Source: an uncultured Desulfurococcales archaeon (lineage in GTDB: Archaea; Thermoproteota; Thermoprotei_A; EX4484-217-1). Taken from it: a stretch of 64,000 bases of DNA. Below the pieces are notes generated by a model. The model did not search any database and had not been told where the DNA came from. It saw only the letters and a list, made by a program, of their open reading frames with translations. Of the stretch, positions 288 to 62,377 are shown one piece after another. Location: positions 15,936 through 79,935 of the forward strand of contig CAZLZO010000002.1 of NCBI GenBank assembly GCA_964564025.1, given 5' to 3'. The translations under genes and the position numbers were made by a program. The number at the start of each line of letters is the position of its first letter. Positions within the stretch are counted from its first letter, which is position 1.

Positions 288-1019
288 ATTAGAGTCAATA
301 TTAGGCTTTTTGCCATATACAGAGATATTGTAGGCTCAGAGAGAATCACTGTAGATCTTCCGGGAAACTCTACGGTAAAGAATCTTTTAGAGTTTCTTAT
401 AAGAAAATACCCGGAAATAGCTAACTATATTGATGAAAGTGAACCTGAAGAACCAATAATAATTTTAGTTAATGGTGAACCCGCTAATCAAAATACTAAG
501 TTAAATGATGGTGATGAAGTTTTCCTGTTCCCACCAGCATCAGGTGGTTCGCCTGAAGGAGTGATTATTGAGGATGACATTGATATTGAGAAAGTAATTA
601 ATGAACTTAAAAAAACACCTGAATTTGAAAGAGCAGGCGCACTAGTGATTTTTATAGGTTTTGTTAAGGGGGACTTAGGTAATAATGTTAGGGTTCACGA
701 GTTAATATACGAAGCTTATAAACCCTATGCTGAAACTAAACTAAACCAATTAGCCAAGGAATACTCTAAAAAACCAAGTGTTATTGATGTGAAAATATAT
801 CATAAAATCTCGTCACTTAAACCTAAGGAAACTACAGTTTACATTTTCGTAGCTGCTGTAGACAGAAACACAGCCTTTAACGTTGCAAAGGAGGTTCTAG
901 AAAAAGTAAAGCATGAAACACCTATCTGGAAGCTTGAGAGAAGAAATGATGGTGAATACTGGGTTTTGGGTGATGGAAAAAGAGTTCCCAGACCTAAGTT
1001 AATTAGGGAATCTCAATAA
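288..1019 (+). CDS. MoaD-MoaE fusion protein (ThiS/MoaD-like ubiquitin-fold domain ending in GG, fused to the molybdopterin synthase catalytic subunit MoaE); the 5' boundary is uncertain because no canonical start codon is found
   Basis: The frame is open from the stop at 273-275. The translation ..RVNIRLFAIYRDIVGSERITVDLPGNSTVKNLLEFL...VFLFPPASGG is a MoaD/ThiS beta-grasp with a C-terminal Gly-Gly. It continues without a stop into a MoaE domain (..GALVIFIGFVKG...HKISSLKPKETTVYIFVAAVDRNTAFNVAKEVLEKVKHETPIWK). There is no ATG, GTG or TTG in frame before the GTG at 561. Confidence 0.65.
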   Translation: MRVNIRLFAIYRDIVGSERITVDLPGNSTVKNLLEFLIRKYPEIANYIDESEPEEPIIILVNGEPANQNTKLNDGDEVFLFPPASGGSPEGVIIEDDIDIEKVINELKKTPEFERAGALVIFIGFVKGDLGNNVRVHELIYEAYKPYAETKLNQLAKEYSKKPSVIDVKIYHKISSLKPKETTVYIFVAAVDRNTAFNVAKEVLEKVKHETPIWKLERRNDGEYWVLGDGKRVPRPKLIRESQ

Positions 1020-1428
1020 TTTCGACTTCACATAAATCATCGTCTTTAATAATGTAAGCCACAATTGCTTTATCATGCTTACTGATTATAACCCAAGGTA
1101 TCCCCCATAACCTCATGAATTTCAAGTCTCTACTAGATGGTTTTGTAGATGACATGTGCGAATGAAATAAACCGACAATATCCATAGATTTTTTCGCATG
1201 CTTCATTATCTCAAAATACATTTCTTTAGGATCCATAGTAAAACTTAATGGCGAATTGTTTAAGTTCTTTATAAATGAGCATTCTTTAACTATGAACTCC
1301 TTCCCCTTTCTTCTTTCACCAAATAAAATGCCGCAGATCTCTATGTTTTCACTTTCTACTTTACTAAGAATCTTACGTATTACTTCTTTCTTTACAAGTA
1401 ATAGTATTTCACATTTCTTCCTTCCCAT
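1003..1428 (-). CDS. JAMM/MPN+ (Mov34) family metalloprotease, a candidate Ubl/MoaD-processing isopeptidase
   Basis: The protein carries E..CGILFGE and a HSHMSSTKPSSRD motif, i.e. the JAMM pattern Ex(n)HxHx7Sx2D. It is 141 aa, typical of stand-alone archaeal JAMM proteases. It is convergent with the MoaD-MoaE gene and overlaps it by 17 nt. Confidence 0.7.
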   Translation of the reverse strand: MGRKKCEILLLVKKEVIRKILSKVESENIEICGILFGERRKGKEFIVKECSFIKNLNNSPLSFTMDPKEMYFEIMKHAKKSMDIVGLFHSHMSSTKPSSRDLKFMRLWGIPWVIISKHDKAIVAYIIKDDDLCEVEIIEIP

Positions 1429-1521
1429 AATACAGCCCTAAGTTATGTTGGCATCGTTAGAAAATATGTACAAAACTATTTAATAGAGTTATGAAAGAGA
1501 AGTTAAGGGTAACAATGTAAG

Positions 1522-2760
1522 GTGTTTGATATCTTGAGTGTAGTTAAGGAAAACGTTTATTTGAAATGTGTAAACTGTGGTGCAATTTACCCTCCAAACC
1601 CTAAAACATATAAGTGTGCAAAGTGCAATGGCTTACTTTCTGTAGAATATGATTTCTTAAAAACCGAAATTTCATGGGAGGATTTTAAAGGGAAAGGTGT
1701 ATGGCGCTATAAGCAACTTCTCCCTCTTTCAGAAACCTTACTTGATTACGTAATAACATTAGGTGAAGGCAGCACACCACTTATTAGCGTTGAAAATATT
1801 TTTGGTTCAAAAAGCTTCTACGTTAAGTTTGAAGGCGCAAACCCTACGGGGAGCTTTAAGGATAGAGGGATGACGGTTGCAGTTACACTAGCTAAACTTA
1901 TAGGTTCGACATCAGTTATTGTTGCTTCAACAGGAAACACTGCAGCATCTGTTTCAGCATATGCTTCACGAGCCAAAATGAAATCCATAATAGTTTTACC
2001 TAAGGGAAAAGTTGCTTTAGGTAAACTTGCTCAAGCAATACTTCATGGTGCAGAAATTTTTGAAATTGAAGGGAACTTTGATGATGCATTAGAGGTTGTA
2101 AAAAAAGTTGTTGAGAAAGAGCCGAAAATATATCCTTTAAACTCCTTTAATCCATGGAGACTTGAAGGACAAAAGACTATAGCATTTGAAATTGCCGAGG
2201 AAATTAACACGCCAGACTGGGTTATTGTACCTGTGGGTAATGCAGGAAATATTTCAGCAATATGGAAGGGCTTTAAAGAGCTTTACAGATTTAAACTCAT
2301 AAATAAGCTACCAAAAATGGTGGGCGTTCAATCAGAGGGGGCTTCACCATTAGCTAGAGCATTTGAACTTGGATTAAGCAAACCTATTTTCACTGATAAG
2401 CCTGAAACTATAGCAACTGCTATTAGGATAGGTAAACCTGTCAATTGGCCTAAAGCAATGGCTGCAGTTAAGGAATCTAAAGGCCTATTTGTTAAAGTTA
2501 GTGATAAAGAAATATTTGAAGCAATGGTGAAATTAGGTTCCCTTGAAGGTATTGACTCGGAACCTGCAGGAGCAGCTAGTGTTGCAGGTTGTTTAAAACT
2601 TTTAAAGCAAGGCATTATTAAAAGGAACGATAATGTTGTATGTGTAGTTACTGGTCACGCATTAAAAGACCCTGAAATCCTATTAAGAATTCAAGCGAAA
2701 AGAACAACCATGCTTAAGAACAAAGCTATAGAGATAATTTTGAAAACTACTTCCCATTAA
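1522..2760 (+). CDS. thrC: Threonine synthase
   Basis: N-terminal Cys4 zinc ribbon (CVNCG...CAKCNG) typical of archaeal ThrC, and the PLP-lysine motif TGSFKDRG. 412 aa with a GTG start. Confidence 0.85.
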   Translation: MFDILSVVKENVYLKCVNCGAIYPPNPKTYKCAKCNGLLSVEYDFLKTEISWEDFKGKGVWRYKQLLPLSETLLDYVITLGEGSTPLISVENIFGSKSFYVKFEGANPTGSFKDRGMTVAVTLAKLIGSTSVIVASTGNTAASVSAYASRAKMKSIIVLPKGKVALGKLAQAILHGAEIFEIEGNFDDALEVVKKVVEKEPKIYPLNSFNPWRLEGQKTIAFEIAEEINTPDWVIVPVGNAGNISAIWKGFKELYRFKLINKLPKMVGVQSEGASPLARAFELGLSKPIFTDKPETIATAIRIGKPVNWPKAMAAVKESKGLFVKVSDKEIFEAMVKLGSLEGIDSEPAGAASVAGCLKLLKQGIIKRNDNVVCVVTGHALKDPEILLRIQAKRTTMLKNKAIEIILKTTSH

Positions 2761-2823: not shown

Positions 2824-3075
2824 TTATTTTAGAGCTAAAGCGGTCTCTAAACCTTTTTTCGTTAAGACATAAATGGGGATGTTAAGGGGATTTCTAGAGT
2901 AAGGGCAGATCTTTTTTAGAGAACAGGCTTCACATTTTTCTTTAAAACAATCAATTTTCATAAGATACCCTTTTACGATAAGGTTATTTACTACATCTTT
3001 TACTTCATTCCGAGTCATGTTTAAGTCTTTAGCTAGCTCCAGCATGGACCATGAGCCTTTAAATATTTTCAACAA
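2824..3075 (-). CDS. Small winged-helix protein with a C-terminal Cx4Cx2Cx5C cluster (FeoC-like putative Fe-S or metal-binding regulator)
   Basis: 83 aa. The HTH-like segment is MLELAKDLNMTRNEVKDVVNNLIVKGYL, followed by CFKEKCEACSLKKIC. Confidence 0.4.
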   Translation of the reverse strand: MLKIFKGSWSMLELAKDLNMTRNEVKDVVNNLIVKGYLMKIDCFKEKCEACSLKKICPYSRNPLNIPIYVLTKKGLETALALK

Positions 3076-3100
3076 TACCTTTTTTCAATAGAATTTAAAC

Positions 3101-3733
3101 TCATATGTGTCCCTGCAGATCATTTTTTATTTCTTTCACAACATCTGATATTTCACTTAGTTTTGGAAGATATTTTACGTTCTTAACTCTAAACGTTATC
3201 GTAACTAAGAGCCTATTCAAGTGTTCCCTTGTACTGACGCTATATTTTAACTTATGTGAAGGCTTTTTCGATGGTTTTCTTTTAACATATTTTTCTAAGA
3301 AGAATGTAAATCCCATGCTGGCTGAAGCTAAGTTTAGCTTAATCCACATATCACCTAATTTAAGCTGTGATTCTGGAAATTCCCGAAACATTATAAAAAT
3401 TGAGTTGTCATCTATGTCTAAATCTACTTCCTCAAGTACATACATTCCTTTTCCATTAACTTTTTCGAGAACGTCTTCTTCTAAAGCCCTAATGTTTAAT
3501 GAATCAAGCATTGTTCTATGAAGCTCTTCTCTAAGCCTCTTAAAATCTACGGTTTTTTCTTCAACTATTTTCCTAAGCACAGGTTCGGTTAATGAAAACA
3601 CCTCCTTAGCAACATCATTTACATTTGCATTAGTAATTTCGGCTAATTTCTCTAAAAGATTTATTATTTCCTCTGAAACTTCTAACATTATATACTTCTT
3701 CTTGCTTTTCAAGATGCACACATCCCTTTCCAC
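3101..3733 (-). CDS. Hypothetical protein
   Basis: 210-aa ORF with protein-like composition and no recognisable motif. Long ORF in the coding-dense minus-strand block. Confidence 0.4.
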   Translation of the reverse strand: MERDVCILKSKKKYIMLEVSEEIINLLEKLAEITNANVNDVAKEVFSLTEPVLRKIVEEKTVDFKRLREELHRTMLDSLNIRALEEDVLEKVNGKGMYVLEEVDLDIDDNSIFIMFREFPESQLKLGDMWIKLNLASASMGFTFFLEKYVKRKPSKKPSHKLKYSVSTREHLNRLLVTITFRVKNVKYLPKLSEISDVVKEIKNDLQGHI

Positions 3734-60974: not shown

Positions 60975-61361
60975 TCAATCCTCCTTCACTACAGTGTATT
61001 TTTCAAGTTCACTGTTCAAGAGTTCTTTAAGTCTTTCTAAATTCTTTTCATCAATTATTATGTCGTCATTCTCTATTTTGAACTTTATATCAAAGCTCTT
61101 TCGATGTATGTTTTTACCCAAATATTTCCACTTTATTTGAGATACTTTATCTTTCTTCCCCCTATACTTAATCCTCCACCAATATCTACTGATGTAAACA
61201 TATTTCTTAACAGTGTTTCCCTTTTTAACTATAACTATGTGAACCGGTTTCAAATAGAGTCTTTCTTCTCCTGGTACCTCATTTCTTCTCATAATTATTT
61301 TTGCTAACCTCTCTCTAATTTTAGGGAGTAGTTTTGCACCATGTATTATTTTTATCTTCAT
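60975..61361 (-). CDS. Hypothetical basic protein
   Basis: 128 aa, Lys/Arg-rich. Confidence 0.4.
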   Translation of the reverse strand: MKIKIIHGAKLLPKIRERLAKIIMRRNEVPGEERLYLKPVHIVIVKKGNTVKKYVYISRYWWRIKYRGKKDKVSQIKWKYLGKNIHRKSFDIKFKIENDDIIIDEKNLERLKELLNSELEKYTVVKED

Positions 61362-61382
61362 TTCCTATCTTAACCCTAGACT

Positions 61383-61442
61383 TTATCAGTGGCGACCGTT
61401 TTCATCACGAAAGCTCAGTGAGGGAAAGGATCATCACATCCT
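61383..61442 (-). ncRNA. C/D box sRNA (dual-guide 2'-O-methylation guide RNA)
   Basis: The minus strand reads aggatGTGATGAtcctttccctcaCTGAgctttcGTGATGAaaacggtcgccaCTGAtaa. That is C box (7), 12-nt guide, D' (4), 6-nt spacer, C' (7), 12-nt guide, D (4), all with canonical box sequences. Confidence 0.7.
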
Positions 61443-61543
61443 AATGTTACCTTTATTAGTAAGCCCACAGTATTTAATTAATAACAAAACTTGCAGAATA
61501 ATGTTTCTTATGTGCAAAAAGTTTCTAAAGTAGGTGGCATTCC

Positions 61544-62377
61544 TTGAAAAACAAGGTCTCCGCATCTATTCCTCAGACAAGTGAAGGTAAGCAATATCAT
61601 ATAGCATGTAAACCCGGAGACGTTGCTCCGTATGTTCTTCTTCCAGGAGATCCTAAAAGAGTACCCAAGATAGCGAGTTTTTGGGATAATTTTAGGAAAG
61701 TAGCTGAACATAGAGAGTATGTAACTTACACAGGCAAGTATAAAGGCGTGCCCATTTCAGCTACAAGCACAGGAATAGGAGGCCCAGCAGCTGCAATAGC
61801 AATTGAGGAACTTTTAAGGGTTGGTGCCCACACATTCATTAGAGTTGGCACAACAGGCGCTATTCGGAGAGAAGTTAATGTTGGAGATTTAGTTATTTCA
61901 TTAGGCGCCATAAGGTTTGATGGCGTAACTAAGCAGTATGTGTTTCCAGAATACCCGGCTATAGCAAGTTATGAAGTTGTCTTAGCTCTTATTGAGGCGG
62001 CAGAAAACCTTAACGTAAAATACCACGTTGGTATTACAGCATCTACAGACTCCTTTTACACGGGACAAGGTAGACCAGGTTTTAAAGGCTATATGTTGAG
62101 CTGGATGAAAAACATAATTCCCGATCTCCAAAAGATTGGAGTTATTAACTTCGAAATGGAAGCCTCAACAATTTTCACATTAGCTAACATTTACGGAGCT
62201 AGGGCGGGCTCAGTATGTGCTGCTATAGCAAACAGAGTTACTGATGAACTTTTACCAGAAGCCGGAGTTGAAGACGCCATACGTGTAGCTAATGAAGCAG
62301 TTAAAATACTCTATGAATGGGATGAAATTAAGCTGAAAAAAGGGAGGAAATACTTCTTCCCATCATTACTAATCTGA
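61544..62377 (+). CDS. PNP/UDP-family nucleoside phosphorylase (uridine/MTA/purine nucleoside phosphorylase-like)
   Basis: HIAC.PGDVAPYVLLPGDPKR...GVPISATSTGIGGPAAAIAIEEL..GA..FIRVGTTGA matches the PNP/UDP-1 family signatures. TTG start. Confidence 0.8.
   Translation: MKNKVSASIPQTSEGKQYHIACKPGDVAPYVLLPGDPKRVPKIASFWDNFRKVAEHREYVTYTGKYKGVPISATSTGIGGPAAAIAIEELLRVGAHTFIRVGTTGAIRREVNVGDLVISLGAIRFDGVTKQYVFPEYPAIASYEVVLALIEAAENLNVKYHVGITASTDSFYTGQGRPGFKGYMLSWMKNIIPDLQKIGVINFEMEASTIFTLANIYGARAGSVCAAIANRVTDELLPEAGVEDAIRVANEAVKILYEWDEIKLKKGRKYFFPSLLI

Follow-up and report, generated by a model that had tools for sequence, protein, structure and literature searches.

Hyperthermophilic archaea each have dozens to more than 100 C/D box sRNAs, so that one more such RNA is routine annotation. 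In this class of archaeal sRNA, L7Ae binds the kink-turn formed by the C and D boxes and the kink-loop formed by the C' and D' boxes, and recruits Nop5 and fibrillarin. Structures of archaeal C/D RNPs have a guide-target duplex of 10 bp. Degeneracy of the C' (and D') box is usual among C/D sRNAs.

Among the published sRNAs closest to the one described here are Iho sR311 of Ignicoccus hospitalis and Mka sR115 of Methanopyrus kandleri, which are predicted to methylate G3058 of 23S rRNA (Dennis et al. 2015, PMC4644070). We predict the same nucleotide for the D guide of an sRNA gene in the window, the whole 64-kb stretch of DNA that was analysed. The sR311 guide, AAUGGCCGCUG, is nearly identical to the D guide in one lineage related to that of the window (AAAUGGCCGCAG, here called the L250 type), and its register relative to the box is equal. 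However, the matching guide of sR311 is its first (D') guide and its other guide has no predicted target, and the second guide and the genomic context are unlike those of the window sRNA. Given these differences in guide position, second guide and context, we take the likeness to sR311 to reflect a shared target or convergence, orthology not being demonstrated.

A second precedent concerns double guides. Neq sR15 and sR17 of Nanoarchaeum equitans each carry guides that pair on opposite strands of one helix, which was interpreted as an aid to folding (Dennis et al. 2015, PMC4644070). The opposite-strand pairing of these 'chaperone' double guides, at sites far apart in sequence, is like the arrangement that we propose for helix 94 of 23S rRNA. 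However, the Nanoarchaeum cases involve 16S helices 28 and 30, and the D' target of the window sRNA would adjoin the partner strand, an assignment that is uncertain.

The best explanation of the locus as a whole is a dual-guide box C/D sRNA gene with a probable TATA box of its own, in which the D guide would act at helix 94 and the D' guide likely beside helix 94. We give this reading a probability of roughly 0.85. The sRNA gene is real, evolutionarily conserved and of the ordinary archaeal C/D type. The conservation data carry most of the weight in this argument, and complementarity alone is modest evidence.

The sRNA gene and its orthologues

The minus strand from 61437 to 61386 reads GTGATGA-TCCTTTCCCTCA-CTGA-GCTTTC-GTGATGA-AAACGGTCGCCA-CTGA (Table 1), bounded by gat 5' of the C box and by taaag 3' of the D box. 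This direct read bears out the four canonical boxes and two 12-nt guides that the first-pass annotation had placed on the minus strand. The span that it gave, 61383-61442, does hold the sRNA but includes a few flanking bases; box to box, the RNA measures 52 nt (about 56 nt in that annotation), and both spacers are exactly 12 nt. The site is the sole C/D-C'/D' arrangement, strict or relaxed, returned by a regular-expression scan of both strands of the 64 kb. The analytic expectation for such a layout is 1.2e-5 per window, and 100 shuffles gave 0 matches.

Table 1. Features of the sRNA gene and its neighbourhood (window coordinates)
Feature	Positions	Strand	Remarks
C box GTGATGA (RUGAUGA)	61431..61437	minus	direct read; TGATGA constant in 5/5 lineages
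D' guide UCCUUUCCCUCA, 12 nt (TCCTTTCCCTCA in Table 2)	61419..61430	minus	direct read
D' guide core, positions 2-11, CCUUUCCCUC	61429..61420	minus	unchanged in 5/5 lineages; positions 1 and 12 vary
D' box CTGA	61415..61418	minus	direct read; CCGA in the L247 lineage, otherwise CTGA
Linker GCTTTC, D' box to C' box	61409..61414	minus	6-10 nt and variable in sequence among orthologues
C' box GTGATGA	61402..61408	minus	direct read; degenerate in orthologues (GTGACGA, ATGATGT, ATGATAT)
D guide AAACGGUCGCCA, 12 nt (AAACGGTCGCCA in Table 2)	61390..61401	minus	direct read
D guide core, positions 2-11, AACGGUCGCC	61400..61391	minus	same in 4 lineages; AAUGGCCGCA in the fifth
D box CTGA	61386..61389	minus	direct read; constant across orthologues
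Conserved 17-nt block CTAATAAAGGTAACATT	61443..61459	minus	between TATA box and C box
Probable TATA box TTAAATAC for the sRNA	61470..61477	minus	sequence read; about 36 nt upstream of the C box
Small basic ORF, 128 aa, UBP-family-like	60975..61361	minus	start codon 24 nt after the D box
Uridine phosphorylase, divergent neighbour	61544..62377	plus	best PDB matches 1tgv, 1k3f and others, E~1e-57

The sRNA was recovered at the same synteny, that is, next to the uridine phosphorylase gene (udp) and divergent from it, followed by the small ORF, in four further lineages whose udp is 96, 88, 87 and 79% identical to that of the window (Table 2). These lineages are uncultured Thermoprotei, Desulfurococcales-like and not Sulfolobales. 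In lineages with udp identity of 76% or lower the sRNA was not found at this position, and therefore the family is limited to a narrow clade.

Table 2. Boxes, guides and linkers of the sRNA in five lineages, named by locus
Lineage	C	D' guide	D'	Linker	C'	D guide	D
Window	GTGATGA	TCCTTTCCCTCA	CTGA	GCTTTC	GTGATGA	AAACGGTCGCCA	CTGA
L243/L246	GTGATGA	ACCTTTCCCTCA	CTGA	GTTTCC	GTGACGA	AAACGGTCGCCG	CTGA
L245	ATGATGA	ACCTTTCCCTCA	CTGA	AACGAATGTA	ATGATGT	TAACGGTCGCCG	CTGA
L247/L248	ATGATGA	ACCTTTCCCTCA	CCGA	AGCCATTA	ATGATGT	TAACGGTCGCCG	CTGA
L250-L255	ATGATGA	ACCTTTCCCTCT	CTGA	GCGAAAGCCG	ATGATAT	AAATGGCCGCAG	CTGA

Positions 2-11 of the D' guide are identical in all five lineages, and those of the D guide are identical in four and carry three differences in the fifth, the L250 type. 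The orthologues vary at both end positions of the guides (1 and 12), in the linker and in the C' box. This is the pattern that selection on a 10-bp guide-target duplex would give, and it is expected of a working C/D sRNA.

Class membership and comparison with RNA families

In all five lineages, a C box of the form RUGAUGA lies near the 5' end and a CUGA D box near the 3' end, and the boxes of the window sRNA follow the order C-D'-C'-D. The length falls within the range of about 50-70 nt and the spacers have the length of about 12 nt that are typical of the class, with 12-nt spacers in every orthologue too. Alignments of the orthologues indicate selection on the boxes and guides, and not on the linker or flanks.

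Rfam gave no match at gathering thresholds anywhere within the window. A permissive search of 260 nt around the site returned C/D box families only, aligned end to end, the best of them snoPyro_CD (24.7 bits, E=0.003), followed by sR12, sR9 and sR19, all sub-threshold. These scores of 19-25 bits stand against gathering scores of 36-45 (24.7 versus 45 for snoPyro_CD, RF00095). Such a shortfall is to be expected, because the C/D families of Rfam are defined by guide sequences, which differ here. The four families (snoPyro_CD, RF00095; sR12, RF01147; sR9, RF01312; sR19, RF01142) likewise have C, D', C' and D boxes and two 12-nt guides in about 55 nt, but their guide sequences are unlike those of the window sRNA. 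Judged by archaeal C/D covariance models, a check proposed by the first-pass annotation, the resemblance is thus specific to C/D families, at scores below every gathering threshold. The sRNA fits the general archaeal C/D class and no existing Rfam family. By itself the RNA does not fold stably (MFE -12.1 kcal/mol, z=-0.19), as is expected because the guides must stay single-stranded. The earlier identification as a C/D box sRNA is supported by architecture, spacers, fold, the C/D-only Rfam matches, the orthologues in five lineages and complementarity to rRNA.

Ribosomal RNAs used in the target search

Target pairings were computed against the rRNA of relatives, namely the 7 archaeal 23S sequences in the alignment of Dennis et al. 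(2015; PMC4644070, Additional file 3) and 120 metagenome archaeal 23S loci. The latter contain GUGAGGGAAAG by construction of the search pattern, which is not lineage-specific; two of the 120, L149 and L239, were confirmed as full-length archaeal LSU rRNA genes. One criterion applied to the targets was the rule of Dennis et al. (2015), which calls for at least 9 consecutive Watson-Crick (WC) pairs covering the N+5 nucleotide.

By Rfam, the window and its extensions hold no tRNA and no rRNA, and the window holds no further copy of the target core of either guide. None of the 120 metagenome 23S loci could be assigned to the window's organism. The same-sample 23S contigs L137, L140 and L186 gave inconsistent guide matches, and the tetranucleotide similarity of the flanks of L151 and L181 (r=0.93-0.94) is suggestive only. 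Spurious antisense ORFs inside 23S, used as a route to the rRNA of the lineage, yielded 21 proteins, none of them informative, and viral contigs scanned for hypothetical compensated target variants gave chance matches only. A literature search for the guide strings returned nothing relevant, and the D' core, CTTTCCCT, occurs in none of 489 published sRNAs.

One of the loci is of interest in its own right. In L137 (about 400..1590, in 23S sense, the reverse complement of the stored locus), domain I of the 23S is split by an AT-rich insertion of about 1.2 kb, with 29-47% G+C versus 60-70% in the exons and with ORFs resembling homing endonucleases. L137 comes from metagenome Ga0190363, a sample shared with the sRNA locus L246.

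Proposed target of the D guide

Three changes separate the window type of the D guide core (AACGGUCGCC) from the L250 type (AAUGGCCGCA): position 4 goes from C to U, position 7 from U to C and position 11 from C to A. The first two, both transitions, preserve pairing with G, and the change at position 11 costs an end pair alone; therefore GCGGCCGUU is the one sequence that pairs with both versions. It is found at a single place in 23S domain VI, CCCCGAAAAGA-GGCGGCCGUU-C, where it is present in 10 of the 52 loci covering the region and in Pyrobaculum, Thermoproteus and Methanopyrus. Ignicoccus and L239 read GGCGGCCAUU at this place, which makes 9 contiguous WC pairs with the L250-type guide. 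Both versions of the guide fit GGCGGCC(G/A)UU of the relatives' 23S, the 3' strand of helix 94 (domain VI), and no other site gives both guide types a good duplex energy (-17 to -19.5 kcal/mol). Most likely, then, this stretch is the one with which the D guide would pair, and GGCGGCCGUU or GGCGACCGUU would fit there. By the N+5 rule, the predicted methyl group falls on the central G of GGC-G-GCC, which is G3058 in the alignment of Dennis et al. and roughly C2785 of E. coli.

Under the strict pairing rule, the L250-type guide reaches at least 9 consecutive WC pairs against the 23S of Ignicoccus and L239, and the window guide at helix 94 has 9 WC pairs and one G.U pair against relatives' rRNA and falls short. 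In the window type, a U lies opposite a nearly invariant G beside the methylation site, giving a G.U pair unless the organism's own rRNA has an A there. A shuffle test on the shared 9-mer GCGGCCGUU gave p ~0.05 only.

Candidate targets of the D' guide

The D' guide is of low complexity, with a purine target, and it has several near-matches in 23S, among which we consider three sites. Site (a), GUGAGGGAAAG in domain I, makes 10 contiguous WC pairs in every archaeal 23S examined, and the base predicted to be methylated there is G589 of the alignment, which corresponds to G468 of E. coli (by our own count) and to Sac G522. Site (b), CGGCGAGGGAAAGGGG near nt 250, matches all 10 core positions; it is present in 12 of the 120 loci and absent from Ignicoccus. 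Site (c), CUGAGGGGAAGG(U) in domain VI, has 10-11 WC pairs and one G.U pair, and the whole guide pairs in the A1 variants. Its target, UGAGGGGAAGG, adjoins the 5' strand of helix 94, and the predicted methylated G is roughly G2641 of E. coli. None of the published guides targets the nucleotides proposed for D'. With so purine-rich a target, 10 contiguous WC pairs are attained in one operon by 2.4% of D' guides after shuffling, and the complementarity of this guide therefore has modest weight.

Site (c) is tied to the D target by the structure of the rRNA. In helix 94, GCGGCC of the D target is base-paired to the GGCCGC just before C-UGAGGGGAAGG, a pairing supported by three independent compensatory variants among the loci. 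Site (c) begins one nucleotide past this GGCCGC, the partner strand of helix 94, and the two candidate sites are about 145 nt apart in the 23S sequence and adjacent in the structure. We consider UGAGGGGAAGG beside helix 94 to be the most likely D' target, rated slightly above the site in domain I, and use of both sites is possible.

A serious alternative, to which we give somewhat less than even odds, is that the D' guide of the same sRNA acts on GUGAGGGAAAG in domain I, so that the two guides would serve unrelated and distant sites in 23S. WC pairing there extends over t1-t10 and takes in the first D' box base as well, and this is the sole D' site to pass the strict rule of at least 9 consecutive WC pairs, as it does in all relatives' 23S. 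It is found in Sulfolobus, Pyrobaculum, Thermoproteus, Ignicoccus and the 120 metagenome loci, although its presence in the latter was built into the search pattern. Methanopyrus kandleri sR37, sR90 and sR121 target G586, A587 and A591 in the same GUGAGGGAAAG stretch, beside the candidate G589, but they address other nucleotides with guide sequences other than that of the window D' guide. However, guide position 2, a C that is invariant in all five lineages, would face a C in domain I, and the duplex there (-15.2 to -15.8 kcal/mol) is 3-4 kcal/mol weaker than that with UGAGGGGAAGG (-18.5 to -20.2 kcal/mol).

At about position 250 of 23S (E. coli numbering), most Crenarchaeota have GGGGCGACCGAAAGG, in which 8 nt of the D-guide target are contained, and loci L123, L131, L153, L154, L169, L201, L206, L215, L217, L228, L230 and L234 read CCGGCGAGGGAAAGG instead, which is the full 10-nt D'-guide target. 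The position is about 230-257 nt 5' of the domain I site, and the coincidence complicates target calling.

The first-pass annotation had predicted targets complementary to the full 12-nt guides, presumably in rRNA or tRNA. Complementarity to rRNA holds for both guides, in each case to the 23S of relatives, but the literal 12-nt complements do not stand as targets; the pairing cores are positions 2-11.

Other possible targets for the D guide

We think it unlikely that the D guide, which we place at helix 94, acts elsewhere, that is, at the tip of helix 25, at a hairpin near 23S nt 95, on a tRNA, or on no target at all as an orphan guide. The helix 25 tip (a G-GCGA-CCGUU hairpin), about 107 nt from the domain I site of the D' guide, matches 10 of 10 positions in L238, and L132 has a 9/10 match at 23S nt ~95. 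These two sites, however, fit the window-type guide alone, with the L250 type pairing there at -10 kcal/mol or weaker, and the matching sequences occur in single, probably unrelated lineages whose genomic G+C is about 47%. An orphan guide would have precedents, in that roughly one in three published archaeal sRNAs lacks an rRNA target (Dennis et al. 2015, PMC4644070); no tRNA or other target was found within the window.

Placement of both guides on the GACCGAUAG...GUGAGGGAAAGG stretch of domain I was also considered and was dropped for the D guide, as archaeal 23S reads CCCGAGACCGAUAG there. The pairing of the D guide in the GACCGAUAG region holds in many bacteria and fails in archaea, and a contig search with TGGCGACCG N(10-40) TGAGGGAAAGG gave at least 120 matches, of which those listed are all bacterial 23S.

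Probable promoter and downstream gene

A probable TATA box precedes the sRNA (Table 1), and the L250 lineage has a similar A/T element, TATATAC, at an equal distance from its sRNA. From standard archaeal promoter geometry, transcription is predicted to start at about 61447, roughly 10 nt before the C box. The 17-nt block between the TATA box and the C box is the same in L243 and L245 and differs in its first base alone in L247 (udp identity 87-100%). It was thus kept in four lineages while the neighbouring spacer diverged, and it is absent in the L250 type. A promoter-proximal or initiator element is one possible role for this block, and a site for protein binding is another.

On its 3' side, the sRNA is adjacent to the small basic ORF in all five lineages, on the same strand and with a gap of 18-30 nt. 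The first-pass annotation had called this ORF a basic hypothetical; it is indeed small and basic, but it is not without relatives. A word search of 5.8 billion proteins found 3 homologues only, and the ORF matches NCBIfam NF052683 (E=1.6e-11, 44.5 bits, below the cut-off of 90) and PDB 9efd/9efe (E=3.4e-7), sharing with UBP the motif YLKPxHIV...KKYxYIxxYW...KWxYLGK. By these matches, the ORF is a distant member of the UBP family of nucleoid proteins. An AlphaFold model of the ORF (pLDDT 60) was too poor for use. UBP is a ucm-binding nucleoid-associated protein that acts at Sulfolobus replication origins (PMC12141716).

No T-run or T-rich terminator lies between the D box and the ORF, and therefore read-through into the ORF is possible. 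The sRNA and ORF signals may overlap, or the two may be co-transcribed. The D box and the next bases, CTGATAAAG (61381..61390, minus strand), resemble a TATA box at leaderless distance from the ORF start at 61361.

This neighbourhood raises the possibility that the element acts mainly in cis, as a kink-turn leader controlling the UBP-like gene via L7Ae or the RNP, instead of or besides guiding in trans. In its favour is the constant position of the sRNA, which in each of the five lineages precedes the ORF by 18-30 nt on the same strand, without a T-rich terminator in between. Lineages without the sRNA here also have a different small-ORF arrangement, and L7Ae binding to archaeal mRNA leaders is described (PMC5539422). 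However, a kink-turn acting in cis leaves the two strictly kept 10-nt cores and the rRNA complementarity unexplained, and co-transcription is unnecessary if CTGATAAAG serves as the TATA box of a leaderless ORF. We therefore hold this reading to be improbable. Slimmer still are the chances that the sRNA and the UBP-like gene form one conserved transcription unit, in which an RNP on the leader would both release the helix-94 guide and chaperone and set the level of the chromatin protein; if true, such a unit would connect ribosome biogenesis with control of the nucleoid or of replication.

A motif without function, arisen by chance or decayed, would agree with the lack of any Rfam family at gathering score, but this reading is effectively refuted by the low expectation of the layout (1.2e-5) and by the conservation pattern, in which boxes and cores were kept in five lineages despite a diverged spacer and a neighbour protein at 54% identity.

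Genomic setting

The window is part of a 190-kb metagenome contig (35% G+C). The divergent neighbour of the sRNA, earlier labelled a nucleoside phosphorylase, is more exactly a uridine phosphorylase. Its nearest named relatives, at 79% identity, are from a 'Thermoprotei archaeon' and from 'Desulfurococcales archaeon ex4484_217_1', and we therefore take the organism to be an uncultured Desulfurococcales-like crenarchaeon and not Sulfolobus. After the uridine phosphorylase gene come two genes of the IF-2B family and one for a PfkB kinase, a grouping that resembles a nucleoside or methylthioribose salvage cluster.

Elsewhere on the window's contig, about 5-8 kb from the sRNA (L001, 14625..18384), are CedA1-family genes and a large ATPase (DUF87/AAA_10, TraG-like) that together resemble the crenarchaeal Ced DNA-import system. 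Another candidate C/D sRNA, ATGATGA-TTCTAGCCTACG-CTGA-ATA-GTGATGT-ATACGACGGGGG-CTGA, lies on the minus strand of L257, about 135 nt from its high-coordinate end (roughly 3060..3108 in plus coordinates), in a related organism without the window-type sRNA. L258, which is near-identical to L257, belongs to the window's own assembly, ERZ27227320.

Proposed function and significance

For a dual-guide C/D sRNA acting at helix 94, the reading that we prefer, the likely function would be to 2'-O-methylate 23S rRNA near helix 94 and possibly at a site in domain I as well. In this scheme an sRNA of about 55-65 nt would be transcribed, probably from the TATA box that precedes its C box by about 36 nt, and an RNP of L7Ae, Nop5 and fibrillarin would form on it. 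Positions 2-11 of each 12-nt spacer would pair with rRNA, and 2'-O-methylation would fall on the nucleotide that faces the fifth guide base counted upstream from D or D'. The RNP would bracket helix 94, with one guide on the 3' strand and the other abutting the 5' strand, and the folding of this helix may also be aided. The motif, its conservation and its complementarity to relatives' rRNAs were computed directly; that the sRNA is expressed, binds proteins and directs methylation, and at which sites of this organism's rRNA, we infer.

The sRNA joins a very large class that is already known, as a new member from a lineage without catalogued RNAs of this type. It adds a guide RNA family, missed by Rfam-based annotation, for an uncultured Desulfurococcales-like clade, and it supports a methylation site at helix 94 of 23S that is common to Ignicoccus and Methanopyrus. 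If both guides bracket helix 94, the sRNA would be a further example of the proposed chaperone role of double guides.
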